This document shows positions 9,985-26,769 of a stretch of 26,769 bases of DNA, piece by piece. The translations under genes were made by a program, and so were the position numbers. Numbering within the stretch: position 1 is the first letter of the stretch; each line of letters begins with the position of its first letter. This DNA comes from a virus (taxonomy: Duplodnaviria; Caudoviricetes): the IMG/VR virus record IMGVR_UViG_3300020042_007005, positions 1 to 26,769 of that record; one strand, given 5' to 3'. Under the pieces are notes generated by a model, which was given only the letters and a program-made list of their open reading frames with translations, ran no database searches and was not told the origin of the DNA.

Positions 9985-10046
9985 ACAACAAAAACAACTA
10001 GACGGAAGTTAAGTTGGTGTTGTACACTACAAATTTAGGAGCTTGT

Positions 10047-10691
10047 ATGAAACACGAACGTAAAGACATGGTTGGGCTGGTGTTTGGTCGATTGACGGTA
10101 AACGCATTCTCTCACACCCACGACAGTAGAGCTATGTGGAGCTGCACCTGCGTTTGCGGGAAAAATACGGTCGTATCCGGAAAACTGTTGCGGTCTGGGC
10201 ATACACAATCGTGCGGGTGTTTAGGGTTAGAGGTAAGAGTAGCTGCCACGAAAAAACACGGCGTTAGCCACGCTAATGACAGGACATATAACTGCTGGAA
10301 AGACATGCGAAAGCGCTGCAACAACCCTGCAAGTGCTTACTACTACCGTTATGGTGGAAGAGGTATTAGAGTCTGCGCAGCGTGGGACGACTACAGCGCA
10401 TTTTTGGCAGACATGGGTCCATGCCCGGAAGGTTACTCTATTGAACGTATCGACATTAACAGGGGGTACGAACCTGAAAACTGCAAGTGGATTCCACTAA
10501 ATAGGCAGCAAAGAAACACATCAAAGTCACGCTATATAACCGCGTTTGGTAAAACCCAGCTACTGGTAGAGTGGGCTGAGGAGTACAAACTGGCGGCAAA
10601 AAACATAGCCGCACGGATTAAACTGGGGTGGACTCCTGAAAAAGCCATTACCACCCCAGTCCGCGCTACTAAACTCCGTTCGGGCGACTAA
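10047..10691 (+). CDS. HNH-type homing endonuclease, free-standing, antisense to the operon
   Basis: FGRLTV...WSCTCVCG...SCGC...YGGRGIRVC...SIERIDINRGYEPENCKW...QQRN; AGGAG RBS before ATG 10047. Confidence 0.85.
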   Translation: MKHERKDMVGLVFGRLTVNAFSHTHDSRAMWSCTCVCGKNTVVSGKLLRSGHTQSCGCLGLEVRVAATKKHGVSHANDRTYNCWKDMRKRCNNPASAYYYRYGGRGIRVCAAWDDYSAFLADMGPCPEGYSIERIDINRGYEPENCKWIPLNRQQRNTSKSRYITAFGKTQLLVEWAEEYKLAAKNIAARIKLGWTPEKAITTPVRATKLRSGD

Positions 10692-13036: not shown

Positions 13037-13064
13037 ATTGTACGCTGAGCTGTCAAGGGGTCAA
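13037..13064 (-). promoter_or_regulatory. Putative promoter for the portal unit
   Basis: TTGACC-N16-TACAAT, with an additional TTGACA 8 nt before the -10. Confidence 0.45.
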
Positions 13065-14536
13065 GTGTAGGTGTACGAGGACTTCTTCACCTCGCGCCTG
13101 CCGGTGTTGAGCGTGCCGCCCCGGATGTTCATGTCAATCACGGAGTCGGCGTACTGGTTGGCGTCGTGAACGTGAGAGAAGCTGTTTTTGTCTGGCTTGT
13201 CCTCCATCTCCCCTGACTTCTTGATTTTGTACCGGTAACCATACCGGAACCCCTTGACCAGCGTGGTGCATCCCGGGTCGATCAGGTACAGCGCTTTACC
13301 TTCCAACTGTTGCACAAGCAAGCGCTCGACAGCCTGAATCCGCTTCTCTGGGTCGTTTGTCGGTGGCCGCTGGCATTTGAACCCGGCCTGCTTAACTATA
13401 TCCACCAACGACACTTCGCCCATTTGCTGCTTGGCGTACCCTGCTGGGTCCGGGGCCACGACGAACGAGCACCCCTGCATGTTGTTCGCGATGAACGGGT
13501 TCAGCTTTGTCCGCAGGAACGTCTCGATACCCATGTTCTCCGACGTCAGCTCAGCCAACGTCACTACGCGCCCGCGTGGGTCGCGCTGCTTGAACACTGC
13601 TGCCGGTGTGCGCCCGAAGTCCAGCCCGATAATGACCGGGTAGTCCTCGCTGCGGATCGGCTTGATTTTTTCTTTGCCCACATGGAAATCGTATGTGAAC
13701 GTCTTCTCGTACACCGGCGTCCCAGACAGGCTACGGCCATACTCTGAGCGCAGGTACACACGCAACCAGTCATCGGTCTTGCCCGGGATGATGTTGGGGT
13801 AGTACTGCTTGGGCAGGTTGTTGTAATTGTCGCACTCAGTGTTCACGGCCCACTCAACGCCGTCCTTATCCAGCAGCACCTCTTCGGCCTCTTCACCGAA
13901 CTTCTCAAGGTACGCGTCTGGCTTGATGATCGCGGCAGGCTGCTTGTATATCGCCCAGTTTGACGGCGGCTCTTCCATCTTGTTATGCCACCATGTGTCC
14001 TCGTCGGGCATGTTGGTGTCAAACAACGCACACGACCGTGTGGGCCCACCGTCCTTCATCGACGGGTATCGGTTCAGACGACCTAGCAGGCCATCCACAA
14101 CCTCGCTGTGCAGCTCCCGGCTCTCGTTACCCCACAGGAACGTGGTCTCCAGTGACAGCGCCTTACGCACGTCGTCCGGCGTATCCAACGCGATGAACAG
14201 CCACTCCGACTCCACCTTGGTGCCGTCCGGCAAGTTCGCCATGAGGATAAACGTTTTCTCCACGGCCTTCCAGATACCAGCCTCGCCCGGGGGCAGCCAG
14301 TCGAACACCGTCTTTCGCGTCGTCAGGGCCAGCTGGTCTGCCGTGTTACGCACGATAACCGCCCGCGTCTTGCGGATTTTCTTGGCGTTCGGTGCCTGCC
14401 CACAGGCCATACGAACCAGCTCATGCACGCATGTGACCGACTTGCCCCCACCGACCGGCCCGGCCAGCACGCGGACGTACGCCTCGTCAAGCATAAAGTT
14501 GCGCTGTGTCTCGGTCGGTTTGTATGTGCTGCTCAC
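13061..14536 (-). CDS. terL: Terminase large subunit
   Basis: Walker A GPVGGGKS, VIVRNT, Walker B-like FLWGNE, DTN motif; RNase H-like nuclease GLDFG...DPAG...HVHDANQY. Confidence 0.95.
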   Translation of the reverse strand: MSSTYKPTETQRNFMLDEAYVRVLAGPVGGGKSVTCVHELVRMACGQAPNAKKIRKTRAVIVRNTADQLALTTRKTVFDWLPPGEAGIWKAVEKTFILMANLPDGTKVESEWLFIALDTPDDVRKALSLETTFLWGNESRELHSEVVDGLLGRLNRYPSMKDGGPTRSCALFDTNMPDEDTWWHNKMEEPPSNWAIYKQPAAIIKPDAYLEKFGEEAEEVLLDKDGVEWAVNTECDNYNNLPKQYYPNIIPGKTDDWLRVYLRSEYGRSLSGTPVYEKTFTYDFHVGKEKIKPIRSEDYPVIIGLDFGRTPAAVFKQRDPRGRVVTLAELTSENMGIETFLRTKLNPFIANNMQGCSFVVAPDPAGYAKQQMGEVSLVDIVKQAGFKCQRPPTNDPEKRIQAVERLLVQQLEGKALYLIDPGCTTLVKGFRYGYRYKIKKSGEMEDKPDKNSFSHVHDANQYADSVIDMNIRGGTLNTGRREVKKSSYTYT

Positions 14537-15045
14537 TTGATCTCCTTGACCTCAGCGTCCAGTGTAACGGGTGTGATGGTCTGCTGGTTGCTCAAGTTAA
14601 TACTCTGCCCACCGCCCAAGTCGATAGAAATGCTGAACCCCGGGCCAACATCTTTGACTTTTTCCTCTCTGGGCTCTAACCCTGCGGCCTTGATGAGCGT
14701 TTTGAGGACTTCATGCTTCTGGCTGAGGCTGGCATCGGTCGACGCCGCACTGAGGTACACCTGATCGAGCAAGTCCCCGGCCATCCACGCGGCCTTGGCC
14801 TTGAACGTGACGCCGTTTTTCTCATACTCGGACCGTTTCATCTGAACTTGCAGTTGAAACCACGGCTGCGCGGCCAATTCGTTGTAATCCTCGACGGATA
14901 CCCCATGACGAGCGGCCACGATCAGCTCATCCTCTAGGCCAAGGGCTATCGAAGCGACCATTTCGTCGCTGATTTGTGGGAATGACACCGTTTTTGGCTT
15001 GTATTCCAGCGGAAAGTCATCCATGGGGGTGTTTTCAGACAGCAT
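14533..15045 (-). CDS. terS: Terminase small subunit (putative)
   Basis: 4-bp overlap with terL; start reassigned to ATG 15045 (GGAGG RBS); helical core with C-terminal GFSISIDLG strand. Confidence 0.65.
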   Translation of the reverse strand: MLSENTPMDDFPLEYKPKTVSFPQISDEMVASIALGLEDELIVAARHGVSVEDYNELAAQPWFQLQVQMKRSEYEKNGVTFKAKAAWMAGDLLDQVYLSAASTDASLSQKHEVLKTLIKAAGLEPREEKVKDVGPGFSISIDLGGGQSINLSNQQTITPVTLDAEVKEIK

Positions 15046-15205
15046 TTGCAGCCTCCGCAGCCTGCTTTTTGGCTTTCTCAAGGGCTTGGTAGTACTTTTC
15101 CATGGCAATTCTGGCCATTTCAGCCGAGGAAACGCCCTTTTGGGTGGCCAAAACACGGTATTTTTCAATCAATTCTTCGGGCAAATACAGGTTCCATCGC
15201 TTCAT
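15035..15205 (-). CDS. Ribbon-helix-helix (CopG/Arc-like) DNA-binding protein
   Basis: MKRWNLYLPEELIEKYRVLATQKGVSSAEMARIAMEKY: alternating beta strand, helix, GxS turn, helix; GGAG RBS before ATG 15205. Confidence 0.8.
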   Translation of the reverse strand: MKRWNLYLPEELIEKYRVLATQKGVSSAEMARIAMEKYYQALEKAKKQAAEAANAV

Positions 15206-15217
15206 TTTGAGCTCCAA

Positions 15218-15314
15218 ATGTATGTATACACACGTATTGTACATACGTTTTTCAATTTTTTGGGGCTTTTTTGCAAGGGGGCGGGGTGTTTTTATGGGTG
15301 TATGTATACATACA
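15218..15314. promoter_or_regulatory. Operator-like palindromes upstream of the RHH gene
   Basis: ATGTATGTATACACACGT (15218-15235) beside a minus-strand TACAAT (15236-15241); perfect 16-bp palindrome TGTATGTATACATACA (15299-15314). Confidence 0.6.
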
Positions 15315-15356
15315 TGTCGTAGGTTTGATGTGCTAAGAGACTGCGTCGTAAGCAGA

Positions 15357-15398
15357 GGGCGGGGCGGGTGGGGCCTTGGGGGGCCTGTGGGGGGTGGG
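15357..15398 (+). other. G-rich tract with seven G runs (G-quadruplex-capable); candidate packaging/terminus region
   Basis: GGG C GGGG C GGG T GGGG CCTT GGGGGG CCTGT GGGGGG T GGG. Confidence 0.6.
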
Positions 15399-15461
15399 TA
15401 GCGGCCAGACCATTAGTGGAAGGGTTGACTACAGGGTAGCGGCCAGACCAGTAGTGGAAGG
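15396..15461 (+). repeat. 28-bp direct repeat, two copies
   Basis: GGGTAGCGGCCAGACCA(T/G)TAGTGGAAGG at 15396-15423 and 15434-15461, one mismatch, 10-bp spacer. Confidence 0.95.
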
Positions 15462-15462
15462 A

Positions 15463-15855
15463 CTAGCATCCTGTGTGAAATAACGCTAACAGCTAGGTGT
15501 CGAGTAGGGTAACTCCCCGAAGCCCAGTGCGGGTAGAGGTGCGAAGCCAGAGGACACGTGGATAGTCACACGCCAACGGGTCAAGCCGGGCCGGGTGTCA
15601 AGCCGCTACCTGCCTTGCAGGATTGGACTCATCGCGTTGCCATAAGTGGACGTGTCCTGAGAACCCAAGTAGTTGCCGATCATTGCGAGTATGCAAGATG
15701 ACTCAAAATGCGTAGGGGCTATAAATTTATATCGCAGGCTTTTTGAGGTTGCCTGACCAACAAACTAACCGAGCGCCAACAGCCGGGGGCGCTAATACCC
15801 GGAAGCCCTCTCAAGGGGCTTGAGTGTATATCCGTTTTGGGTATACATCAAAGCT
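15463..15855 (+). ncRNA. Candidate large structured RNA / 5' leader of the early operon
   Basis: No convincing ORF; helices 15468-75/15616-23, 15529-36/15606-13, 15551-59/15650-58; repeated GGU-GNNAA-GCC hairpins; H-type pseudoknots 15735-15770 and 15772-15802; non-Watson-Crick pairs are G-U on the + strand. Confidence 0.6.
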
Positions 15856-15878
15856 CAATCAACCACCTAGGAAAAATC

Positions 15879-16403
15879 ATGGAAAAAGCTCAAATCCTCA
15901 AGAATATCGGTTCAATCGGTCGTGCATCCAAAAAGCTGACCTCTGATATTCAATCAACCGCAGTCGGTTGCGCTCTCCACGCTGTCAAGCATGGTGACGT
16001 AACTCTTGCAGACCAACTCGTGGACGCCTTGGGTAAGGGTATGCGCAAAGCATCGTTGCGTGCATGGTTCGAGACCAACACGCCAATGTTCATTGCCAAG
16101 GGCAAGGACAAGTTTAGCTTCGATACTGAGCGTGCCAAGACTATGCGTGGCATGGATGCCAAGGTCTTGGAAGAAGGTCTTATGGCCCTTGCATGGGAAG
16201 AAGCTAAGCCAGAAGAAAAGGTAGTGTCGGTATTCGACGTGTCCGAAGCGTTCGACAAGTTTATCAAGCGTGTCGAGTCTATGACCAAGGATGCCGAGGT
16301 CACAACCCGCAATCGTGAAATGCTGGATTACTTGCAGTCCGCCAGCGCTCAGTATCACGAAGCCAAGGCTCTCAACAGCCGAGTGTCTTTGTCCGCCGAG
16401 TAA
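15879..16403 (+). CDS. Conserved early phage protein (HGDVT motif), function unknown
   Basis: ATG 15879 with AGGA RBS; IQ...LHAVKHGDVTLADQLVDALGKGMRKASLRAWF resembles first-early genes of podoviruses. Confidence 0.8.
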   Translation: MEKAQILKNIGSIGRASKKLTSDIQSTAVGCALHAVKHGDVTLADQLVDALGKGMRKASLRAWFETNTPMFIAKGKDKFSFDTERAKTMRGMDAKVLEEGLMALAWEEAKPEEKVVSVFDVSEAFDKFIKRVESMTKDAEVTTRNREMLDYLQSASAQYHEAKALNSRVSLSAE

Positions 16404-16420
16404 TCACAGGTCTCAGCCTG

Positions 16421-16440
16421 AAGCCCACAAGGTGGGCTTT
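16421..16440 (+). terminator. Stem-loop (weak terminator or RNA processing site)
   Basis: AAGCCCAC-AAG-GTGGGCTT followed by only a short U run. Confidence 0.45.
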
Positions 16441-16466
16441 GGAGTGTCACTTGTAAAGGAGTAACC

Positions 16467-16715
16467 ATGTCTCGCGTTCACTTAGTTCATTCTGGTGCTA
16501 TGTCTAAGCACCACACTAGCACAGCCGCACCCAAGTCTGTGCCGCTTTACACACCATCGCGTGTAGGGTATTCAAGCCGCCGAGCCAAGTCCAGTGGCGG
16601 GCAGTCGTTCGTCTACACAGCCGCGTCTACCAACGGATTCAGGTATCCAAAGCTGTCGCCAAGCGAGTCAGGCACTGGCTTTTGGCATCAGCGCAACTCC
16701 AAGCCGCAGGCTTGA
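16467..16715 (+). CDS. Small basic hypothetical protein
   Basis: AAGGAG RBS; 82 aa, Ser/Lys/Arg-rich. Confidence 0.65.
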   Translation: MSRVHLVHSGAMSKHHTSTAAPKSVPLYTPSRVGYSSRRAKSSGGQSFVYTAASTNGFRYPKLSPSESGTGFWHQRNSKPQA

Positions 16716-17112
16716 TGTATACACACGTCTAATTATCCAAGTATCCAAGGGGCTTTTGCCCTTGGATAATTACCTTTCCCTTTAAAATCAAGGGGTTAGA
16801 GGTGTAATTAGACAATTAGACAATTATCCAACAATTTAGGTACACACAGATGATGCGTGTGTGTTCTCGTGCGAAAGTGCGCCAAGCGCACACAATTCAT
16901 ACGACCCTAAAATCCTCTCGCATCCTCCAGCTTTTCTGGCTAATTGGATAATTAGCCTAGGGTATACCCGCATACCCTCGCACAAGCCAGTATCTATGCG
17001 CCTTCCAGCATCAGTACTCGCTAACATCGACTATCCAAGCCCCTCAAATCTTGGATACCACCTTGCCTAATTACCCCTTCAACGTACGTATACACAACGT
17101 GTGTATACATCA
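16713..17112. other. Putative replication origin: iteron cluster bounded by a 16-bp inverted repeat
   Basis: Non-coding; seven TATCCAA copies in both orientations; ends TGATGTATACACACGT / ACGTGTGTATACATCA. Confidence 0.6.
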
Positions 17113-17121
17113 GGAGTCACC

Positions 17122-17280
17122 ATGTCCCAACGTCAACAGCTAATGTATGTATACATCAAAGATGACATGGAAGATGAGGAACCCTTCATCTTCGAGGCAA
17201 GCACCGACCGCAACCCCTTGGACATGGACGACCCAGAGGTGGCATATCACGAGTACTTGGCTGAGCGATTCAGCCGATAA
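17122..17280 (+). CDS. Small acidic protein (52 aa), absent from the ORF track
   Basis: CAGGAG RBS; MSQRQQLMYVYIKDDMEDEEPFIFEASTDRNPLDMDDPEVAYHEYLAERFSR. Confidence 0.7.
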   Translation: MSQRQQLMYVYIKDDMEDEEPFIFEASTDRNPLDMDDPEVAYHEYLAERFSR

Positions 17281-17320
17281 CATACGTACAGACGTACGTA
17301 TACATCAAATGGAGAACATC

Positions 17321-17533
17321 ATGAATGCAAAAGAACTGAACCATGCTCGTGGACTTGAGCAGGCCTTGCGCCGCAAGTTGACGATTTTGAGAGATCAGGC
17401 GGCGCAAGCCGATGCTGACAAGGACGGGCGCTCGCGCATGGCCCTCCGTTTGAGAGCGGAGGCAGACGCCGCTGAGTTGGCGGCTAACGATCTGAGGGTA
17501 GCAGTAGATGCCGCCGTGTACTTTAAGGATTAA
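17321..17533 (+). CDS. Small helical hypothetical protein
   Basis: GGAG RBS before ATG 17321; MNAKELNHARGLEQALRRKL... Confidence 0.7.
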   Translation: MNAKELNHARGLEQALRRKLTILRDQAAQADADKDGRSRMALRLRAEADAAELAANDLRVAVDAAVYFKD

Positions 17534-17535
17534 TC

Positions 17536-17745
17536 ATGGACACCATCACACCCGGACAACACCTCGAGCGAACCATCACGGTGGCCCTCAAGGACGTGTA
17601 TGGCAAGCAAACCATATATCCAGTGTGCGACATGGCACACACGTTTGCAGCACTCACCGGGCAGAAAACCCTGAGCGACCGACACATCGAGATCATCAAA
17701 GGTCTTGGGTACACAATCGTTATCGAGCAAAGGACACTGCCATGA
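17536..17745 (+). CDS. Conserved small phage protein
   Basis: VYGKQTIYPVC...FAALTGQKTL...IKGLGY motif; AAGGA RBS. Confidence 0.75.
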   Translation: MDTITPGQHLERTITVALKDVYGKQTIYPVCDMAHTFAALTGQKTLSDRHIEIIKGLGYTIVIEQRTLP

Positions 17746-17999
17746 AACAACGTAAACGCATAGACGACCCGCCATGGGAATACTTCATAGAACCGGCAAT
17801 GTCATGTTGCAGTGCGCTGCCCCAATACGTCGTTGAACGGTTGGGGCTTTTTTACAGCACAGAGAAAATTAAAAAGTACAAGGGTTGGTGCAGTAACTGC
17901 AACGCCAACCTTTTCCACGACCTAAATGGGAGATTTCCATACACAACCGAAGAGTTCGACCGCTTTGAGAACACGCAACAAGAGGAGATAACCAAATGA
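17742..17999 (+). CDS. Hypothetical CxxC protein, paralogue A
   Basis: ATGA overlap, AAGGA RBS; WEYFIE...WCSNCNANLF...GRFPYTTEEFDRFE. Confidence 0.75.
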   Translation: MKQRKRIDDPPWEYFIEPAMSCCSALPQYVVERLGLFYSTEKIKKYKGWCSNCNANLFHDLNGRFPYTTEEFDRFENTQQEEITK

Positions 18000-18208
18000 A
18001 ACCTATAGTATTCTACAAAACCTACTCTGACCCAATGATGTGCTTGCTGTACGACAGTATGGACAAACCCTTTTGGTGTGCAAAGCTAGAGGTGGTCGAC
18101 CACTCGAACCTTGGCAGTGGCGTGATACGCACAAGTGCCATCGTAAGTTTCAACCCTCAAGGTGGAATCATTGAGACTAAGAACACGATATACGTGCCTG
18201 AATCATGA
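17996..18208 (+). CDS. Small hypothetical protein
   Basis: ATGA overlaps at both ends; VDHSNLG...IRTSAIV...IETKNTIY motif of a common small phage family. Confidence 0.75.
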   Translation: MKPIVFYKTYSDPMMCLLYDSMDKPFWCAKLEVVDHSNLGSGVIRTSAIVSFNPQGGIIETKNTIYVPES

Positions 18209-18468
18209 ACCAACGTAAACGCAAGAAACTCATCCTTATAAAGATGGACAATCCGTCATGGGAGTACTTCATAGAGCGCACGGCCATGTACAAGACGCGG
18301 GATATAAAGCCATGCAAATCCTACTCGCACTGGTGCAGTGACTGTAACGCAGTCCTGTTCAGAGAACTGCATGGGCGATTCCCTCACACCATCGAGGAGT
18401 TCGACCGCTTCGAGAACATACAGCAGTTGGCCGGATACAAACTTGAAGAAGCACAGGAGACACCATGA
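18205..18468 (+). CDS. Hypothetical CxxC protein, paralogue B
   Basis: WEYFIE...WCSDCNAVLF...GRFPHTIEEFDRFE. Confidence 0.75.
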   Translation: MNQRKRKKLILIKMDNPSWEYFIERTAMYKTRDIKPCKSYSHWCSDCNAVLFRELHGRFPHTIEEFDRFENIQQLAGYKLEEAQETP

Positions 18469-18632
18469 CCAAAGAAGACTGGATTATTCTGCGCCTACTG
18501 AAGGCATCAAGCCGAACCCAAGCCTGTGCCCATCCTGACTACGTACGTTCAATTCTGCGCCTACTGGACAAGTACGGCTACAAGAGCTTGGACAAACACA
18601 TCGCCCAGTTACACGAGGAGGATAGACGGTGA
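18465..18632 (+). CDS. Small hypothetical protein (55 aa), absent from the ORF track
   Basis: AGGAG RBS, ATGA/GTGA overlaps; MTKEDWIILRLLKASSRTQACAHPDYVRSILRLLDKYGYKSLDKHIAQLHEEDRR. Confidence 0.7.
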   Translation: MTKEDWIILRLLKASSRTQACAHPDYVRSILRLLDKYGYKSLDKHIAQLHEEDRR

Positions 18633-18877
18633 ACGGCGGCAAGACAGGCGCACCACCGGGGCTATTGCAAGACGACAGTCGCAAGCTACACAAATGGTTT
18701 GCCAGTCGCTTGGATGCACGACAAGTAATACGCAACAACTTTGGAGACCCCATGACCAGACACACCCCCCATGGCAGCGTCCCGTCCGTATGGCAGGACG
18801 ATGGGTTCGGGACACTGCACCGCATCACATTTCAGCAACTGATTGCCCGTATCGAATCGGGCTGGAGGGAACTATGA
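18629..18877 (+). CDS. Hypothetical protein
   Basis: GTG start, GAGGAGG RBS; TGAPPGLLQDDSRKLHKWFAS motif. Confidence 0.7.
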   Translation: MNGGKTGAPPGLLQDDSRKLHKWFASRLDARQVIRNNFGDPMTRHTPHGSVPSVWQDDGFGTLHRITFQQLIARIESGWREL

Positions 18878-18963
18878 TTACACATCGAGCCGCAAGAATT
18901 GCCGTACTGCTATTCCTCATTGCAGTCCTAGTCCTTGACCTGTTTTATTGGAGGCCGGGTTGA
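18874..18963 (+). CDS. Small membrane peptide (29 aa)
   Basis: GGAGG RBS; MITHRAARIAVLLFLIAVLVLDLFYWRPG, one TM helix ending DLFxWRP. Confidence 0.7.
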   Translation: MITHRAARIAVLLFLIAVLVLDLFYWRPG

Positions 18964-19238
18964 ACTTCATATGGGAGGACGGCGAGGTGTACTGTCGCTG
19001 CACCATACGCCCCAAGGTACGCATCAAGACAAGAGAGTGGGATGGCAATCTCGTACCACTGTGGGTCGACTCTGTTGGATTCGTAAGAGTACGCATGGAC
19101 GGGTACGAAGGGCACATCTACGGCACGGTGTCGCCTGCACACCCGAAGTCATTCGACACCATCGAGCAAGCCAAGGCATACGTCGAGGAGCAGTCCCTCG
19201 TTGGCCTTACTGTAAATAAGCTACACGTTGACGTGTGA
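18960..19238 (+). CDS. Hypothetical protein
   Basis: TTG start overlapping the previous stop, GGAGG RBS; C-terminal FDTIEQAKAYV. Confidence 0.65.
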   Translation: MNFIWEDGEVYCRCTIRPKVRIKTREWDGNLVPLWVDSVGFVRVRMDGYEGHIYGTVSPAHPKSFDTIEQAKAYVEEQSLVGLTVNKLHVDV

Positions 19239-19373
19239 CTGTGTAAGTTTCGCGTAAGACGACATACATACACTTAATCAAACAAATTCAGGCTACCCCA
19301 TCGTTCAAGCGTCACGCATGGGGGCAGGCATCCAGACGCTACATAAACATATCTCAACACACAAGGAATCATC

Positions 19374-20372
19374 ATGCGTTACAGCAATATCAAAACATCT
19401 GTTCTCGAACAGTTCAAGGTCGATGGCGGCAATGCCGTCGTACCCTTCATCCTCGGTGCGCCGGGTGGTGGTAAGTCCGCCTGTGCTCGTGAGGTCATCT
19501 CTGAGCTTGGCATCGAGAACGTGGTCGAGTTCACTGCGTCACTGCGTGACCCGGTCGACGTGCTCGGCGTACCTAACACCCAAGGCGAGTACACACGCTG
19601 GGTTCCACCCCAAGAGTTCTACCAACTGCGACGTGGTGTAGGACGTGCAGCACTCATTCTGGAGGAGCTGTCTGATGCGCCTGTGCCCATGCAGAACGCA
19701 CTGTGCGGTGTTATCTACGATCGTCGTGCTGGCAACCTCATGCTGTCTGACGAGCTGTTTATCATAGCCACTGGCAACCGTACCGAGGACAAGTCTGGTG
19801 CCAATCGCATCACATCCAAGCTGGCCAACCGTACACGGCGCTTCGACTTCCAAGAGACCATCGAGGACTGGACAGCATGGGCGCTCGACAAGGGCATCGA
19901 CCCTGTGCTCATTCAGTTCCTGCGCTTCCGTCCCGGTCTGCTGTCTGACTTCGATGCCAACCGCTTCGCCAATCCTACGCCTCGTTCATGGGAGCGTGTC
20001 AACCTTATCCCTGACAGCCTCGACAAGGGTCTGTTCTTCGACAACTGCGCTGGTGAGGTGGGCGAGGGCGCTGCTGCTGAGTACACTGGGTTCAAGCGTG
20101 TCTACGAGTCACTGCCTGATATCGACTCCATCTTGCTCGACCCTGCTGGCTCAGACGTACCCCAAGACCCTGCGACTCTGTACGCCTTGACTGGTGCGCT
20201 GGCTCGTAAGTCAACGAAAGATAACTTCGACCGTGTGTCCCGGTACCTGTCCCGCCTGTCTCCTGAGTTCAACGTCATGTGTACCAAGGACGCGATCAAG
20301 CTGCAGCCTACCATCAAGCACACACGTAGCTTCGTCGAGTGGGCATCAAAGAACGCCGAGGTGCTGATGTGA
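19374..20372 (+). CDS. MoxR/CbbQ-like AAA+ ATPase
   Basis: Walker A GAPGGGKS, Walker B LILEE, sensor-1 IIATGNR, arginine finger LANR, PTPRSWE. Confidence 0.92.
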   Translation: MRYSNIKTSVLEQFKVDGGNAVVPFILGAPGGGKSACAREVISELGIENVVEFTASLRDPVDVLGVPNTQGEYTRWVPPQEFYQLRRGVGRAALILEELSDAPVPMQNALCGVIYDRRAGNLMLSDELFIIATGNRTEDKSGANRITSKLANRTRRFDFQETIEDWTAWALDKGIDPVLIQFLRFRPGLLSDFDANRFANPTPRSWERVNLIPDSLDKGLFFDNCAGEVGEGAAAEYTGFKRVYESLPDIDSILLDPAGSDVPQDPATLYALTGALARKSTKDNFDRVSRYLSRLSPEFNVMCTKDAIKLQPTIKHTRSFVEWASKNAEVLM

Positions 20373-20617
20373 GATGGACGTATCCACACTACGAACGCGA
20401 CGAGTTCAGAAAAATCAAGCCAATCGCTGAGTTGTGGGACGAAAGGTCAGGTATGCGTGTGGCGCTAGTGTGTCGTGCGGATAACTGGCCTGAATCGTCT
20501 TACAAGATTGTCACTCCCGTCGCGTACCACAGGTTCAACGACGTCGACACGGTCGAGATGCAGGGCGACTTCCTCGAAGCCCAAGAACTCGCGGTGGCAA
20601 TGGCGAGGCTTGCATGA
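20369..20617 (+). CDS. Hypothetical protein
   Basis: GTG 20369 overlapping the ATPase stop, GAGGT RBS; C-terminal DFLEAQELAVAMARL. Confidence 0.65.
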   Translation: MRWTYPHYERDEFRKIKPIAELWDERSGMRVALVCRADNWPESSYKIVTPVAYHRFNDVDTVEMQGDFLEAQELAVAMARLA

Positions 20618-20889
20618 CAGTCAGTGACCTTAAATGGCATACCCGAGACGACGGCGCAACATGGGTGTTGCTCGGGGATTACAAAGGCGAAGCTGGGTTT
20701 TGCATCAATCGCAGGATGTTTGAACTCCAGTACCTTGGCCGCACTAAAGGGGCTAGTCGGGGAGAAAGAAAGATGCGATGGAAAGCCCACGACCGCCGCT
20801 ACTGGGTCGACGACCCGCAAGACATACCTGAGTTCCTTGACCTCGATGAGGCCAAGGCTTGGGTTTTAACAATCATCACACTGGAGTAA
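20614..20889 (+). CDS. Hypothetical protein
   Basis: ATGA overlap; C-terminal FLDLDEAKAWVLT. Confidence 0.7.
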   Translation: MTVSDLKWHTRDDGATWVLLGDYKGEAGFCINRRMFELQYLGRTKGASRGERKMRWKAHDRRYWVDDPQDIPEFLDLDEAKAWVLTIITLE

Positions 20890-20891
20890 AC

Positions 20892-21764
20892 ATGACACCT
20901 ACAAAACTTTCGGACAAGGTAGTTCTTGTCAAGCTGACTATTCGTCGCGCAGCACTCACCAAGCGCGATGCGTATCTATCGGACAAGATTCAGCGTCAAG
21001 AGGGCGACACCTCGCTGACTGTGCTGACCAAGCTGTTCAGGAACAAGGACTCTGCGATTAACCAGATCATGTCGTCATACGGCGAGTTCTATCAGTACCA
21101 CAAGAAGAACACGCTACCTTACATGGATGCTGGCCCACGCATCTTGCCCAATGACTTGTACATGGAGTACACGCAAGAGATGAAGCACCGCATCGCTAAG
21201 GTGGACAACCTGCTCGACACTTACATGCCCATGTATGACCAGCTAGTGCAGGACGATGTGATGTACCGCAACAGTGGACACGCAGCTGGCCGTGCCAATG
21301 CTTCCGAGTACCCCACTGCCGAAGACTTCAGGCAGTCCATGTCAGCCGAGTTGCGCTTCCAGCCCATGCCAGATGCGTCGCACTTCCTGTTCGACCTCAG
21401 TGACGAAGACGTTGCGTCGTTCAAACGTGCCGAGGAAGAAGCCGCGCAAGCTGCCAACGCTGACACCATACAGCGCATGCTCAAGCCCATACAAGCACTG
21501 GTGACTAAGCTGGGCGAGTACCAAGGTCTCAAGGGTGAACGCTTCCACAACAGCCTTGTCGAGAACGTCATCGACGGATGCACACTGGCTCGCAAGCTGG
21601 CAATCAGCCCGACACCTGAGTTGCTTGCGGATATCGCTGAGCTGGAGGATGCAGTGCAGGGCTACCTCAAGGACGTGGAGATGATCAAAGGCTCAGCCCA
21701 CAAGCGCGACGAGGCCAAGAAGAAGCTGCAAGACGTGGCGTCAAAGATGGCGATGTTCTCATGA
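20892..21764 (+). CDS. DUF3150-like helical protein
   Basis: GGAG RBS before ATG 20892; VLVKLTI...TLPYMDAGPRILP...EYPT pattern; lies between the AAA and VWA genes. Confidence 0.55.
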   Translation: MTPTKLSDKVVLVKLTIRRAALTKRDAYLSDKIQRQEGDTSLTVLTKLFRNKDSAINQIMSSYGEFYQYHKKNTLPYMDAGPRILPNDLYMEYTQEMKHRIAKVDNLLDTYMPMYDQLVQDDVMYRNSGHAAGRANASEYPTAEDFRQSMSAELRFQPMPDASHFLFDLSDEDVASFKRAEEEAAQAANADTIQRMLKPIQALVTKLGEYQGLKGERFHNSLVENVIDGCTLARKLAISPTPELLADIAELEDAVQGYLKDVEMIKGSAHKRDEAKKKLQDVASKMAMFS

Positions 21765-21958
21765 ACTTCACTGACCTTGAGTACATCCTGATGGTCGCAG
21801 TAGCTGTGCTGCTGTGGCGTAACCAGTCCATGAAGATGTGGGCCATGTCCGAGGCGTATCGGGCGAACAAGTATGCCAATTGGCTGGTTGGTGTGTATGA
21901 AAAGAAAGGAAAGATTGTGCAGAAAAACGATGGATACTTTTTTGAGGAGATGAAATGA
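21761..21958 (+). CDS. Small protein with N-terminal membrane anchor
   Basis: ATGA overlaps; YILMVAVAVLLW hydrophobic segment. Confidence 0.7.
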   Translation: MNFTDLEYILMVAVAVLLWRNQSMKMWAMSEAYRANKYANWLVGVYEKKGKIVQKNDGYFFEEMK

Positions 21959-22497
21959 GCACTATGAGTAGCTTTCAACGAGGGCGTATCACTGGTATGT
22001 CCGGTACAGAGACAACAGTGAAGCTGTACCCACATCGACTAGGTGTGAGGATGCGCAACAGCGTCATCCGCATGCTTGAGAACCGCATTGTCGAGGGTGG
22101 CTGGTCATCACAGTCAGCTCGAATAACAAGAGCACTGGCTGCCAAGTACAACTTGCAAGTCAGCAACCAACACTGGAACGGCTTACATATCCTAGGTCTA
22201 TCAGCACACGCAGCACCACTGATAAAGGAGGTCATCCATACAGACTGGATTGCGCGGCTAGTGGAGGAACCTTCATACCGTAATGGGTACTACAAAGATC
22301 GGCACATCGAGGCAATGACCTTTATCGACGCGGTCAATCCAGACTTCTACGTCAACATGCACGACAAGGGGCTAATGCGTAAGGTTGTAGAAATCTTGGC
22401 AGAACATACTACACAGGAGCTCAAAGACAAATCAAAGCAAGTAGCCGACATGCTCAGAGGCACTGAGCCAATCGAAATCATAACTTTTCAGGAGTAA
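21955..22497 (+). CDS. Hypothetical protein
   Basis: GAGGAG RBS, coupled to neighbours; 180 aa. Confidence 0.7.
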   Translation: MSTMSSFQRGRITGMSGTETTVKLYPHRLGVRMRNSVIRMLENRIVEGGWSSQSARITRALAAKYNLQVSNQHWNGLHILGLSAHAAPLIKEVIHTDWIARLVEEPSYRNGYYKDRHIEAMTFIDAVNPDFYVNMHDKGLMRKVVEILAEHTTQELKDKSKQVADMLRGTEPIEIITFQE

Positions 22498-22499
22498 TC

Positions 22500-23609
22500 A
22501 TGGCAGTCACCACACTCGACCGTGCTAAGGTATCTATCGTTACCCAGCATCCGTTCTTTGCATCCATCCTCATGAAGCGCAAGCTCATCGAGGACAACAC
22601 CATCCCCACTGCTGCTGTCGATCAGCGCGGTCAGATTTACTACAACAAGTCCTTCGTTGAGAAGCTGTCTGTTGACGAGCTTGTGTTCCTGCTGTGTCAT
22701 GAGGTAGGCCATGTCATCGGCCAGCATGCACGGCGCCGTGGCGCACGTCACGCCAAGAAATGGAACATCGCAGGTGACGCATGGATTAACGACATGCTCA
22801 AGGACGCAGGCATCGGCCAGCAGATCGAGGGCTGTGTCAATATGCCCGGCTCCAAGGACGAGACAGTCGACGCTATCTACAACAAGCTGCCCGACCAGCC
22901 TGATGGCAACGGCCCCGGTGGTACTGGTGACGACTTGATCGAGCGTGGCACACCACTCACTCAGGACGAGGCTGACCGCATCGACGCTGAGACTCGCGTA
23001 GAGATCGCCCAAGCTGCCCAAGCAGCCAAGGCTCAGGGCAAGATGCCCGGTGGTCTGGCCAAGATCGTCGCCGACCTCATCGACGTGCAGACACCATGGC
23101 ACGATATCCTCGAGCGTTACATGACCTCGTTCACTCGCGGTGACTACACATGGGCACGACCCAACCGCCGCTTCGCCAACTGCTACTTGCCAAGCACAGG
23201 CAAGACCGCCGAGATGGGCGAGGTTGTCATCCAAGTCGATGTGTCTGGCTCCATCAGCAAGACCGAGCTCGACCACTACAACGGCCACTTGCAGCGCATC
23301 GTGTCGCAGTGCAACCCATCCCGTGTCCATGTCTTGTATGTCGACACCAGCGTAGCCAAGCACGAGGTGTTCGAGCAGGGCGAGGAGGTGGCGCTGACGT
23401 TCTACTGTGGCGGCGGCACTGACATGGAGGAGGGCTTCAACTACATCGCCAAGGAGGGTATCAAGCCCGAGGTGTTCGTGTGTTTGACCGACGGTTACAC
23501 AGACTTCAACGCAGCCAATGCGCCTGACTACCCAGTAGTCTGGTGTATCTCTAGTGACATTCGGGCTCCATACGGCGACAATATCCCCTTTACCTTGGAG
23601 CAACCATGA
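22500..23609 (+). CDS. DUF2201-family protein: HExxH metallopeptidase-like domain plus VWA domain
   Basis: PFF...PTAAVD...HEVGH...WNIAGD; MIDAS DVSGS...GGGT...LTDG. Confidence 0.9.
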   Translation: MAVTTLDRAKVSIVTQHPFFASILMKRKLIEDNTIPTAAVDQRGQIYYNKSFVEKLSVDELVFLLCHEVGHVIGQHARRRGARHAKKWNIAGDAWINDMLKDAGIGQQIEGCVNMPGSKDETVDAIYNKLPDQPDGNGPGGTGDDLIERGTPLTQDEADRIDAETRVEIAQAAQAAKAQGKMPGGLAKIVADLIDVQTPWHDILERYMTSFTRGDYTWARPNRRFANCYLPSTGKTAEMGEVVIQVDVSGSISKTELDHYNGHLQRIVSQCNPSRVHVLYVDTSVAKHEVFEQGEEVALTFYCGGGTDMEEGFNYIAKEGIKPEVFVCLTDGYTDFNAANAPDYPVVWCISSDIRAPYGDNIPFTLEQP

Positions 23610-23758
23610 ACGCCAAAGACCAACTCGACTCTCTCATCGAAGCATACAACGGCATCTTCAAGCAGTGCTACGACGCACTAGCAGAGGACGCACCACAAGA
23701 AACACGCGACAAGCTCAGAGAAGCAATTGCAGAGTTTGTTCAGGAAGCTGCTAAATAA
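23606..23758 (+). CDS. Small helical protein (50 aa), absent from the ORF track
   Basis: GGAG RBS, ATGA overlap; MNAKDQLDSLIEAYNGIFKQCYDALAEDAPQETRDKLREAIAEFVQEAAK. Confidence 0.7.
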   Translation: MNAKDQLDSLIEAYNGIFKQCYDALAEDAPQETRDKLREAIAEFVQEAAK

Positions 23759-23768
23759 GTTCGACTAA

Positions 23769-23792
23769 GCCACCCACAGAGGTGGCCTCTTT
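23769..23792 (+). terminator. Stem-loop, possible weak terminator
   Basis: GCCACC-CACAGA-GGTGGC followed by CTCTTT. Confidence 0.45.
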
Positions 23793-23818
23793 AAATCTCA
23801 ACACAAAGGAATCCAATC

Positions 23819-24487
23819 ATGGCTACAGTAGGTATCACCAAAGATCTTCGCAATCGCGTTAAGACGAAGATCAACGGCATGCGCAAAGCAGAGCGCAACA
23901 GTGATGTGCCCAACATCGACAAGAACATTACCCTTAACGCCAGTCAGCTGTACAACATCGGATGCTGGACTGAGAAGTATGTACATCTCATTGATCAGAT
24001 TCCTAAAGACTGGCTAACCAAAACGGAGGAGGCCACCGTGTCCATCAGCGGCACACTCGACGATGGCCGTACACTGTCCACTAGCGTTAGGTTCAACGGT
24101 ATGAAGAGCGCGTATGCTCGCCCAAGAGATTCCTACTACAACAGGGTAGAGTCTGAGTTGACTATCGACTACGTACGTTCCCTGCCTGAGGATACTCCGG
24201 GCCGCGCCGAGCTGCTGCAACGCTGGGAAGAGTCCACAATCGCACTGGACATTGATGCGCGATGGGCCAAGGTAGAGACAGACATTGACGAATTCCTTGA
24301 CAAGTGCAAGTCTCTCAACGAGGCAGTCAAGCTGTTCCCCGGTGTGCGCATGTACATCCACATCGAGGATACCGAGCGCCTTGATCGTAAGTTAGAACGC
24401 CCTGCACAGCGTGCCAAAATCGTTGAAGATGTAGACACCGAGGGACTTACAGCTGCAGCTATTGCAGCTAAACTTTCAGCAGCATGA
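23819..24487 (+). CDS. Nmad5-like protein (nucleotide modification associated domain 5)
   Basis: N-terminal MATVGITKDL and C-terminal FLDKCKSLNEAVKLFP resemble the family; AAGGA RBS. Confidence 0.55.
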   Translation: MATVGITKDLRNRVKTKINGMRKAERNSDVPNIDKNITLNASQLYNIGCWTEKYVHLIDQIPKDWLTKTEEATVSISGTLDDGRTLSTSVRFNGMKSAYARPRDSYYNRVESELTIDYVRSLPEDTPGRAELLQRWEESTIALDIDARWAKVETDIDEFLDKCKSLNEAVKLFPGVRMYIHIEDTERLDRKLERPAQRAKIVEDVDTEGLTAAAIAAKLSAA

Positions 24488-24496
24488 GGAGACACC

Positions 24497-24682
24497 ATGA
24501 AGAAGATATACCCAACCGTACCAGTGGGGCACCCCGAATACAAGTGGACGAGTGGCGCTGACGTGCAGGCCACATGGAGACGCTTCGGCTGGACGCCGCC
24601 GTTCGGTAACAAGTTCGAGCCCATCCCGCCAAAAGTCGAAGAAGTTCTGCAAGTTACACGTAAGTATTGGAGAGTCAAATGA
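24497..24682 (+). CDS. Small hypothetical protein
   Basis: GAGGAG RBS; DVQATWRRFGWTPP motif. Confidence 0.7.
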   Translation: MKKIYPTVPVGHPEYKWTSGADVQATWRRFGWTPPFGNKFEPIPPKVEEVLQVTRKYWRVK

Positions 24683-25326
24683 CACCCATGGAAAGATTCA
24701 ACGCGCTTACTAAGAGACAGCAAGACGAGATACTCGACAAGCATCGCCACCACAACACAGAAGAGCTCGAATGGTGGGGCGCTGTGTACGACGACTTCAA
24801 AGCTGACATGGACAAGGTCGGCATCTACGTTCATCGCATGTATTTCAGCGGCTTCTCATCGCAGGGTGACGGTGCATGCTTTGAGGGTAACGTCGACGAC
24901 TGGCCCAAGTTCTTAGAGTCTCTCGGGCACACGAGCCCAGCACTCATAACGCTGGCCAACACTGGCTGGAAATTTGCTGCCGAGCACAAAGGTCATTACT
25001 ACCACGAGAACTGCGCTCGGTTCGACGCATGTCTCAACACGCTTGACTGCCATGATGCCTACGACGAAGAAGACTTTGCCAATGTATTCTCACCATACAA
25101 GTCAGAGATTCAGACTGCTGCATGGATGGCGCTGATCGCTGACTACAAGCGTCTTGACATAGAGGAAGAACTAGAGGGTGCGTTCAAGAGCCACATGCGT
25201 GACCTGTACAACAGACTAAAAGTCGAGTACGACGCGCTGACCTCAGACGAGTCCGTACTAGAAGCGTTGCATGCTAACGACATGCTTGATGAAATCATTG
25301 ACGAACTGGAGAATGAATATGCCTGA
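24679..25326 (+). CDS. Acidic protein of the FSGFxSQGDGA family, function unverified
   Basis: YFSGFSSQGDGACFEG, HYYHEN, LYNRLKVEYDALTSDE motifs. Confidence 0.75.
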   Translation: MTPMERFNALTKRQQDEILDKHRHHNTEELEWWGAVYDDFKADMDKVGIYVHRMYFSGFSSQGDGACFEGNVDDWPKFLESLGHTSPALITLANTGWKFAAEHKGHYYHENCARFDACLNTLDCHDAYDEEDFANVFSPYKSEIQTAAWMALIADYKRLDIEEELEGAFKSHMRDLYNRLKVEYDALTSDESVLEALHANDMLDEIIDELENEYA

Positions 25327-25816
25327 CTTAAGATCAGAATTGCAGAAGCTTGCAGACCTTAAATTTGACGACGATGGAGACACTACAAACGTGATTACAT
25401 TACCAACAACAAGCGCACCAGATTTCTTGGGCGTGTCCGAGAAACTTTTTAACATCATCAGAGACAACCCCGGCCTTACAAGATCAGAGTTGGTTGAGCT
25501 TTCGCGCAAAGCCAGCATCAAAGACGCGTCGTCGTCATCGCTGCTTGTGCAGTTTACCAAACGCAACCTCATCAAAGCCACAAAGAATGGCAGCGTGTCA
25601 ACATACACAACCGTAGGCAACCACTACGTAAGAGGATACGTAGCCAGAGAAAAAGCTAAAAAAGCTAAGCCTGTTGTCGAGGTGACACCCAAGCCAACAC
25701 CAGCGCCCGATAATCCTGTCAGGTTCATAGGGACTGCGCCGCAGCTGTTGGACACACTGTCTATCGTGCAAGCCCGTGAGTTGTACGACGCACTCAAGAA
25801 AATCTTCGGAGCTTGA
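25319..25816 (+). CDS. Putative winged-helix DNA-binding protein
   Basis: GGAG RBS; LFNIIRDNPGLTRSEL...SSLLVQFTKRNLI; C-terminal SIVQARELYDALKKIFG. Confidence 0.6.
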   Translation: MPDLRSELQKLADLKFDDDGDTTNVITLPTTSAPDFLGVSEKLFNIIRDNPGLTRSELVELSRKASIKDASSSSLLVQFTKRNLIKATKNGSVSTYTTVGNHYVRGYVAREKAKKAKPVVEVTPKPTPAPDNPVRFIGTAPQLLDTLSIVQARELYDALKKIFGA

Positions 25817-25828
25817 ACAGGAAGTGAC

Positions 25829-26299
25829 ATGCGCAAACGCAGTAAATACAAGCCCAAGCCTGTGCTGCTTAATCCCATGGGATTTGTAAAAGAGAGCCTG
25901 TCTCCTGTGCGTTCGCATACATCGTTTCTAGTTGACCTCAAGATCAGGAATCATGCTGCGATGGACTCACTGACCAAGGGCATGGCAACACGCGCTGACA
26001 TCGACACACTGATTGCCATGGGCAACATCACAGAAGCCTTTTTGCGCATGGGCTTTGGCAAAGACTACAGCGGTGTAGTCAAAGAAGGACTGCTGGCTTT
26101 GCGTTCGGTTGGTAAACGCGGCGTTGAGCTTGATCGGTTCATCTTGAAGGCTGTTGAAATGACTGCGCTCAACGAGTTCATGGAGCTGCATGACGCACAG
26201 ATGGAGGTGGTGACTCTGAGAGATATGGACAAGGCCATTGCGCTTGTCCGCGAGGAGTTCCGCTTGAAGAAGATGACACCTATTGTGGAGAAGACATGA
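25829..26299 (+). CDS. Conserved hypothetical phage protein
   Basis: MRKRSKYKPK N-terminus, LHDAQM motif; AGGA RBS. Confidence 0.75.
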   Translation: MRKRSKYKPKPVLLNPMGFVKESLSPVRSHTSFLVDLKIRNHAAMDSLTKGMATRADIDTLIAMGNITEAFLRMGFGKDYSGVVKEGLLALRSVGKRGVELDRFILKAVEMTALNEFMELHDAQMEVVTLRDMDKAIALVREEFRLKKMTPIVEKT

Positions 26300-26391
26300 A
26301 CGATTGCAAGCAACATATGTGGGAGCCTGTTGAGGGTTCTCCAATTTACAAATGTGCCCGGTGTGGCGCTTTTCTGAGGATCATCAAATGA
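26296..26391 (+). CDS. Tiny zinc-ribbon-like peptide (31 aa)
   Basis: GGAG RBS, ATGA overlaps; MNDCKQHMWEPVEGSPIYKCARCGAFLRIIK. Confidence 0.6.
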   Translation: MNDCKQHMWEPVEGSPIYKCARCGAFLRIIK

Positions 26392-26498
26392 GCGACAAGC
26401 TGATCCTGATCGGCGGGGTAATTGCCTCTGCCATCGTGTCCGTCACCCTTATGTGGGGTGTGTGGACGGGTATCTTTTACCTAATGGGGGTTTTATGA
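26388..26498 (+). CDS. Small membrane peptide (36 aa)
   Basis: GAGGA RBS, ATGA overlaps; MSDKLILIGGVIASAIVSVTLMWGVWTGIFYLMGVL. Confidence 0.6.
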   Translation: MSDKLILIGGVIASAIVSVTLMWGVWTGIFYLMGVL

Positions 26499-26769
26499 AA
26501 GACGAAGCATTGAAGCTGGCGCTGGATGCGTTGGAGGGCGTTTTAGATGATTCTCCCAAGGTGTTGGATGCGTCTATCTCAGGCGGCTTGTACGAGGTTG
26601 TTCAATGCCGAGATGCCATTACCGCGATCAAAGCAGCCTTGGCAGCACAGCCAGCACCTGTGCAGGAGCCTGTGGTGTGGATGTGGCAGCAAGCCCCAAT
26701 TAAAACTCAGTGGGGGGATGAGATGGTTGTGGCTGCTCTTGCCATCGACAGAGATCACACGGTGTCTAT
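26495..26769 (+). CDS. Hypothetical protein, runs off the window
   Basis: MKDEALKLALDALE...AITAIKAALAAQPAPVQEPVVW, a modular family common in proteobacterial phages. Confidence 0.7.
   Translation, partial: MKDEALKLALDALEGVLDDSPKVLDASISGGLYEVVQCRDAITAIKAALAAQPAPVQEPVVWMWQQAPIKTQWGDEMVVAALAIDRDHTVS

Follow-up and report, generated by a model that had tools for sequence, protein, structure and literature searches.

Layout of the locus

The window (the whole stretch analysed, 26,769 nt) is a 26.8 kb piece of a tailed-phage genome. Capsid, connector and terminase genes point left and the early genes point right, starting at position 15879; the early and replication genes all share one strand. The packaging arm, with terL at 13061-14536, is headed by a divergent ribbon-helix-helix gene (15035..15244, minus strand). 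The large terminase belongs to phrog_2 and the connector is of the portal type. Complete relatives are genomes of 57-60 kb, one of them classed as a provirus, and one complete relative encodes DNA polymerase A, a helicase, a primase-like protein and virion proteins. Two related loci sit in Pseudomonadota assemblies, one labelled Fluviibacter. An HNH endonuclease gene (10014-10691, plus strand) opposes the direction of the head genes in the window, and the close relative G001 has no ORF of similar size there. A palindromic TGTATACA-core motif occurs four times (15219-15321, 16712-16734 and 17083-17110), and these sites are likely operators of the ribbon-helix-helix protein. AT-rich direct and inverted repeats cluster at 16717-17110 and form a candidate replication origin.

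The first early gene (gene 1, 15879..16403, plus strand) encodes a conserved early protein of phrog_1448. Distant homologues occur in Autographiviridae and Bruynoghevirus, as the second gene and close to the left genome end. Fold and language-model searches with gene 1 gave no match, and a resemblance to lambda N appeared in none of the profile, fold and language-model searches made. Gene 1 is followed in the window by a long interrupted hairpin (16406..16456, plus strand) with only three T after it. A terminator-like GC hairpin with a T-tract, judged by eye, lies at this place in 14 of 47 aligned rows, and the remaining rows, the window among them, mostly have the long interrupted hairpin. 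A conserved 35-nt motif, either a promoter or an RNA element, is found between the gene 1 terminator and gene 2 in the L012, L041 and L102 clades.

No T7-type RNA polymerase was found in any of the five complete relatives (in a search run without a positive control) or among the ORFs scanned. The sigma-70-like sites in 14400-26769 of the window number one on the plus strand and four in total, against 8.2 ± 3.0 expected by chance. With so few sites and no T7-type polymerase found, the early and replication genes likely rely on the host polymerase and on few promoters; the host may use promoters outside the reach of the sigma-70 scan.

Directly ahead of gene 1 lies an ORF-free leader of ~400 nt, the subject of this analysis. 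Upstream of it a G-rich tract (15357..15398, assigned to neither strand) is conserved in the homologues, taking the form of a G tract followed by a C tract in other clades. It likely either marks the packaging end or breaks assemblies; of 39 metagenome loci, 12 start 390-540 nt upstream of gene 1 and 8 start at 540-2500. In two related loci, the terminase-side flank of the G/C tract (L083:1883-1988 and L045:1881-1987, both minus strand) matches the Rfam family Atu_At1 above the gathering score; the Rfam search gave no such match in the window.

Two direct repeats on the plus strand (15396..15423 and 15434..15461) separate the tract from the leader. The copies are 96% identical and spaced 38 nt apart, and their exact core occurs only twice per genome; they are similar within a genome and differ between clades. 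The conserved structure begins at the purine that follows the conserved T of the repeats, from which we infer that the repeats are promoters, and they likely represent an early promoter or a protein-binding site. They fit neither sigma-70, sigma-54 nor T7-type promoters, by scan or by eye. The giant virion protein of the relatives (2,000-2,700 aa) contains a helix-turn-helix (minus strand, L226:5516-5815, L241:1408-1656 and L229:11252-11536) that resembles sigma-70 region 4 (Sigma70_r4) and the antiterminator Q weakly, below threshold. Its second helix is alike where the repeats are alike (G001/G002 and G004/G159) and different in G003, a comparison of five genomes that is confounded by kinship. 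Judged from these sequences, the helix-turn-helix possibly recognises the leader repeats.

Covariation and modules of the leader

Searches with gene 1 gave 25, 35, 39 and 2 loci and, from these, 56 distinct leaders, the window included. The main alignment comprises 47 rows (46 homologues and the window). Nine leaders were left aside, two of them (L021 and L081) on account of unrelated DNA 5' of module E and seven (L025, L022, L057, L059, L094, L095 and L100) as too divergent. Every module alignment beat 500 of 500 shuffles, in both cells paired and covariation score, and the slid controls as well. Shuffles ignore relatedness, and therefore all column pairs were scanned against a tree-based null, which gave 10 pairs at E <= 0.10, of which 8 reached E <= 0.03; every one of the ten is local. 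Nine of these ten fall in module helices, while 15577-15585 is attributed to the alignment of a variant class. The leader is thus a conserved structured element, a chain of local modules with compensatory changes in their helices. In the 5' to 3' direction these are modules B, C and D, hairpin H, two variable slots, modules E and F back to back, and the tail hairpins.

Module B is a pseudoknot (15456..15496, plus strand) with stems 15456-58/15469-71 and 15463-67/15492-96 and a hairpin inserted, the loop of which by eye resembles a T-loop. The earlier note, which described the element from the letters of the window, had placed its start at 15463, about 7 nt too late; its crossing CTAGC/GCTAG helix, the second stem of module B, is 94% paired with 68 double-change cells. 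Double changes occur in all five pairs of this stem, three of which reach E <= 0.03 in the tree-based scan. Module C is a long irregular hairpin (15497..15557, plus strand) closed by 15497-501/15553-57, a helix that is 86% paired with 68 double-change cells (46 rows), the pair 15500-15554 having an E value of 0.00. Its inner helices were assigned by eye, and one internal loop looks, again by eye, loop-E-like.

Module D (15558..15606, plus strand) is an irregular hairpin whose internal loops are conserved and whose terminal loop reads GUNANG, and hairpin H (15609..15621, plus strand) has 5 bp, a 3-nt loop and the top two pairs of the tree-based scan. The joint alignment of D and H is 97.8% paired, with double changes in 12 of 18 pairs and none of 500 shuffles as good. 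The two slots that follow are variable. Slot 5 holds in the window a predicted pseudoknot (15625..15661, plus strand; 15625-27/15655-57, 15628-31/15658-61 and 15633-37/15650-54), a version found in five distinct leaders with one double change (in L002). Slot 6 (15670..15721, plus strand) consists of a stem, an internal loop and a second stem with a predicted terminal pseudoknot; this version is shared by five leaders together with slot 5 and shows double changes in both stems in L001, and most relatives are without it.

Modules E and F are both H-type pseudoknots on the plus strand, and the covariation of the two bears out a pair of 3' pseudoknots proposed earlier. In module E (15728..15770; 15735-39/15751-55 and 15747-50/15767-70) double changes are found in 3 of 4 pairs of stem 1 and 4 of 5 pairs of stem 2, and the unpaired 5' bases and A-rich linker bases are conserved. 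The pairing score over 31 versions is 10.6, compared with 7.8 ± 0.3 for swapped partners. Pairing of the E loop with the CAA of the E linker was considered and dropped, as the covarying partner lies next to F. Module F (15772..15802; 15772-77/15788-93 and 15783-87/15798-802) is the most conserved of all: it is 97.6% paired, all five pairs of stem 2 covary, and none of 500 shuffles is as good. Stem 1 is uninformative for covariation because its core is invariant.

The leader ends in two tail hairpins that share 15818-23 (15803..15854, plus strand). The AAGCCCT/GGGGCTT segments are conserved among the aligned leaders. The long tail hairpin, the last hairpin of the earlier description, occurs in 30 of 56 leaders, and all 20 of its distinct versions fold; the L012, L041 and L049 clades have no tail hairpins. 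It could serve as an RNase III site.

The arrangement differs from the single nested domain drawn before. The stretch is indeed ORF-free, with every complementary segment quoted in the earlier note in its place, but the whole folds at chance level (minimum free energy against shuffles, z -0.23 for the plus and +0.92 for the minus strand). Among the 46 homologues the helix ATCCTGTG/TGCAGGAT is paired in 57% of cells and kept in 2 of 32 gap-free rows, and GCGGGTAG/CTACCTGC in 58% of cells and 5 of 24 gap-free rows. Only 6 rows allow the nine-base crossing helix AGGACACGT/ACGTGTCCT to be read, and none of them has a double change. Every arm of these three rejected long-range helices has another, local covarying partner, and none of the three is among the pairs supported by the tree-based scan. 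Compensatory changes, the proposed check on homologous leaders, are thus present, in the local modules.

With Rfam 15 the window gave no match at E <= 5, and the leader alone gave one 16.6-bit snoRNA match on the minus strand, judged to be chance; none lay within the leaders of 20 related loci. The tRNA/tmRNA search found none in the window, and a blastn search of 50,697 annotated phages with the leader gave no match. Novelty, as far as Rfam can tell, therefore stands for the window, the leader and the 20 related loci. Together with the covariation, this supports the view that the early arm is headed by a structured phage RNA not described before; what falls away from the original proposal is the nested fold with its long-range pseudoknot.

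Imperfect pairs had been read as G-U on the plus strand and so as selection on RNA. The counts for this are weak (23 G-U against 20 A-C cells in three alignments), but the plus strand outfolds the minus strand in 11 of 14 leaders. The counts alone do not prove RNA, and the leader is located at a likely genome end, both of which leave some room for a packaging RNA or a single-stranded DNA structure at that end. This is the least probable of the readings and we give it next to no weight: the large terminase and portal-type connector are standard, pseudoknots in series and purine-rich loops lie on the early-sense strand, and the origin candidate at 16717-17110 is separate. A phi29-type pRNA was rejected on the phrog_2 large terminase and the lack of an Rfam match.

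Two further readings concern single modules. Compact pseudoknots with conserved unpaired bases, as in E, might suggest that at least one module is a self-cleaving ribozyme or a metabolite sensor, and the strand order of module B is HDV-like, with a GCGAA-like linker. Module B, however, has no P3 or P1.1, and the would-be catalytic C is a base of a covarying helix that changes to T. No Rfam family or known aptamer was matched, and after E and F there is neither a terminator nor a ribosome-site overlap that would make a switch. A ribozyme or sensor is thus highly improbable, and the ribozyme and packaging functions offered in the earlier note both failed the tests.

The E-F pair might also be a translational operator, as in T4 gene 32, bound by the gene 1 protein or a host protein that controls gene 1 translation. 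The high conservation of F speaks for this, as does its closeness to the start codon (~30-40 nt) in the L012 and L041 clades. In the window, though, 76 nt and two hairpins separate F from the start codon, no module overlaps the ribosome-binding site, and the upstream 300 nt would be left unexplained, so that we regard an operator as improbable.

Combinations of blocks, possible transcription and an analogous leader

Module order is constant in all leaders, while their content varies by whole blocks. (Automatic slot labels came from a rough regex, and module content was taken by reading the leader sequences.) The window and L001 combine B-C-D with slots 5-6, L002 has a different 5' block (K) with the same slots, L062 and L063 join block K to a two-hairpin block, and L005 and its clade join B-C-D to the two-hairpin block. 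All four combinations of two 5' and two middle blocks therefore exist. The first three of these types occur together in a single supported clade whose copies of gene 1 are 94-98% identical, and block K is found again in a distant clade. The 5' and 3' blocks appear to have been exchanged at hairpin H.

Several variants were noted by eye. L001 and L078 have an extra hairpin inserted where the structure begins after repeat copy 2. L078, L017, L051, L085 and L088 fill slot 5 with a third module, in which a U-rich internal loop precedes an A-tract and which looks like a small triple helix. Block K (L002, L062, L063, L016 and L020) has two complementary hairpin loops, a possible kissing interaction. 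At most an F-like pseudoknot is common to L022, L057, L059, L094 and L100, which carry other apparent structures instead.

Pattern searches returned the same family of loci. All 18 F-pattern matches fell in known contigs. Of the 64 matches to the D pattern, 41 do not have the outer helix and were put down to chance. Known contigs account for 21 of the other 23, and the two in new contigs are placed between the terminase genes and a gene 1 homologue. The E pattern also matched L204 and L211, which do not belong to the family; both matches fall within a long ORF and were discarded. With models that passed a positive control and ~32 candidates scored per genome, the D-H model matched none of 151 sampled bacterial genomes and the E-F model one, which proved to be a phage contig.

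That the leader is transcribed is weakly supported by metatranscriptomes. Run X1, from a lake, contains an identical contig over 15561-15805 and a second, deeper contig over the capsid region (depth 3.1 for the leader contig and 18.5 for the capsid region, contig depth being a poor measure), and RNA contigs of relatives extend from the leader into gene 1. These runs were read as unstranded contigs with small word shares and carry no strand, ends or level; run X3, which spans the same leader stretch, is probably DNA.

In cultured phages an analogous leader is found; Bruynoghevirus phages have a covarying one of their own (L231:572-1005, L243:657-998). LUZ24 gp2 is a distant gene 1 homologue (26% over 117 aa), and a 450-nt stretch ahead of gene 1 is kept in 66 Bruynoghevirus records. 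Double changes affect 16 of 117 predicted pairs in nine genomes, and a single sequence folds at z -0.57. The LUZ24 leader itself has no blastn match among the leaders of its own genus. The module models gave no match on the Bruynoghevirus and LUZ24-like leaders, so the likeness is one of analogy; the Bruynoghevirus leader is an analogue of that of the window and no homologue. Transcript mapping in LUZ24 (PMC10914365) gives five early starts, gene-free leader transcripts that share a 3' end at 998, 3' ends directly after gp2 at 1872 and 1941, and the next mapped promoter at 4869; the LUZ24 ncRNA candidates under 250 nt of that paper do not include the leader. As a separate observation, the untranslated stretch that separates the last early promoter-like site of an Acinetobacter autographivirus from its first gene (L232:1095-1428) is, by eye, rich in hairpins.

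Possible functions and known systems

The reading that we tentatively place first is that the leader acts in cis as a read-through (antitermination) element for the host RNA polymerase, although we hold it with less than even confidence. It is favoured by the fixed position, fixed order and single copy of the modules, the terminator after gene 1 and the few promoters, in a layout of repeats, leader, gene 1 and terminator. The LUZ24 map speaks for it as well, with 3' ends directly after the gene 1 homologue and the next promoter at 4869. Transcription would start at the tandem repeats, possibly recognised by the helix-turn-helix of the giant virion protein, and the leader would be the 5' end of the first early RNA. 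Folding behind the host polymerase, it would let the enzyme pass the terminator behind gene 1 and go on into the long early arm. The E-F pair, perhaps with the gene 1 protein or host Nus factors, might contact the polymerase in the manner of put or nut, stable pseudoknots might deny Rho a loading site and resist backtracking, and the alternative 5' blocks might be versions adapted to host or clade. Against this, whole blocks are replaced by unrelated folds, which is odd for a polymerase-binding RNA, and the clade of the window has only three T after the post-gene-1 hairpin. The length of ~400 nt also contrasts with the two stems of put, and no boxA-like motif was recognised by eye.

The gene-free LUZ24 transcripts ending at 998 fit a released RNA equally well. 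The leader may be cut or terminated at the 3' hairpin to give a stable RNA, the modules of which would serve as trans-acting decoys of host defence proteins or RNA-binding proteins and be exchanged as cassettes of an arms race. We consider this possible but doubtful. Exchangeable blocks, recombined amid nearly identical copies of gene 1, and discrete LUZ24 leader RNAs favour such a trans-acting RNA, as do the long tail hairpin of 30 leaders, the LUZ24 early promoters that feed those RNAs with a leader unmatched within its genus, and the precedent of phage pseudoknots that mimic ToxI (PMC3475682). The points on the other side are the lack of a look-alike in the sampled bacterial genomes other than the phage contig, the lack of an Rfam antitoxin match and of tandem copies, the fixed order, the several clades without a tail hairpin, the RNA contigs that continue into gene 1 and the low X1 depth over the leader, poor measure as contig depth is. 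The cis read-through element and the released decoy RNA are compatible with each other.

Alternatively, the modules could be generic stabilisers, compact folds without a specific partner that protect the first mRNA against decay at its 5' end and shield untranslated RNA from Rho. Unrelated folds do occupy the same slots, pseudoknot B starts at the putative transcription start, and conserved loop bases could serve tertiary folding alone. Stabilisation nevertheless leaves 300-450 untranslated nt, the invariant unpaired bases of D and E and the invariant F stem unexplained, and we rate it as unlikely. Equally unlikely, as a whole, is a broader picture that joins several of these elements: many podophages would begin infection with an exchangeable rack of RNA modules, the 3' pair serving polymerase read-through and the variable slots serving as decoys, with a sigma-4/Q-like domain of the injected giant protein reading the clade-specific repeat promoters, and with an unrelated rack in LUZ24-like phages. 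Left-end leaders of phages are usually annotated as empty, and that of the window is under clear structural selection. If the read-through reading is true, the leader would be a new RNA route to antitermination; if the modules act in trans, they would be a new format of phage counter-defence.

In respect to known systems, no RNA family or description of a leader with exchangeable modules appeared in the freely accessible literature searched. For the 10,006 candidate viral RNAs of Fremin 2023 (PMC10690425) the supplement files searched gave no match, and some module may be among the models in the alignment archives.

GOLLD, ROOL and other large ornate RNAs are large phage RNAs with pseudoknots and unsettled function. 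The leader, unlike GOLLD and ROOL, has no Rfam match and no long-range covarying helices, its blocks recombine, and it is a 5' mRNA leader. The layout of the window resembles the pL-nut-N-tL1 region of lambda, which includes an RNase III hairpin, in its order of (putative) promoter, leader, long hairpin, first gene and terminator. No boxA and no boxB with a GNRRA loop were recognised in the leader by eye. The literature search found no papers on T7 boxA antitermination.

The pseudo-ToxI of PhiTE consists of non-coding phage pseudoknots, a single 36-nt unit that resembles host ToxI and is repeated in tandem (PMC3475682). The modules of the leader, in contrast, are all different and single, with no tandem unit and no host look-alike found; as to mimicry of a type III antitoxin, it shows no tandem unit, no Rfam match and no match in the sampled bacterial genomes beyond the phage contig. 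The put RNA is two adjacent stems of ~70 nt that bind the beta' zinc-binding domain (PMC9378689), and the word pseudoknot is absent from that paper. The leader is like that of HK022 in being a structured RNA that probably heads an early transcript, with terminator-like hairpins downstream, in a phage apparently reliant on the host polymerase. It departs from put in its length of ~400 nt, in having exchangeable blocks and three or more covarying pseudoknots, and in matching no Rfam family or motif: a two-stem anatomy was not found, the covarying structure being a chain with several pseudoknots.

The ncRNA arrays of UG27 reverse transcriptases gain and lose units of one common fold beside the reverse transcriptase (bioRxiv 10.64898/2026.09.22.753630). 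The leader is likewise a phage RNA built as an array whose units come and go, but these units differ in fold and no reverse transcriptase was found among the ORFs scanned. As regards LUZ24 and PaP3, they differ from the window in their sigma-70 promoters, and share with it tandem early promoters (putative in the window), an untranslated leader (340-435 nt in these phages) and a gene 1 homologue, there as gene 2, with 3' ends after that homologue. The analogous leader in such cultured phages makes the question testable in Pseudomonas.
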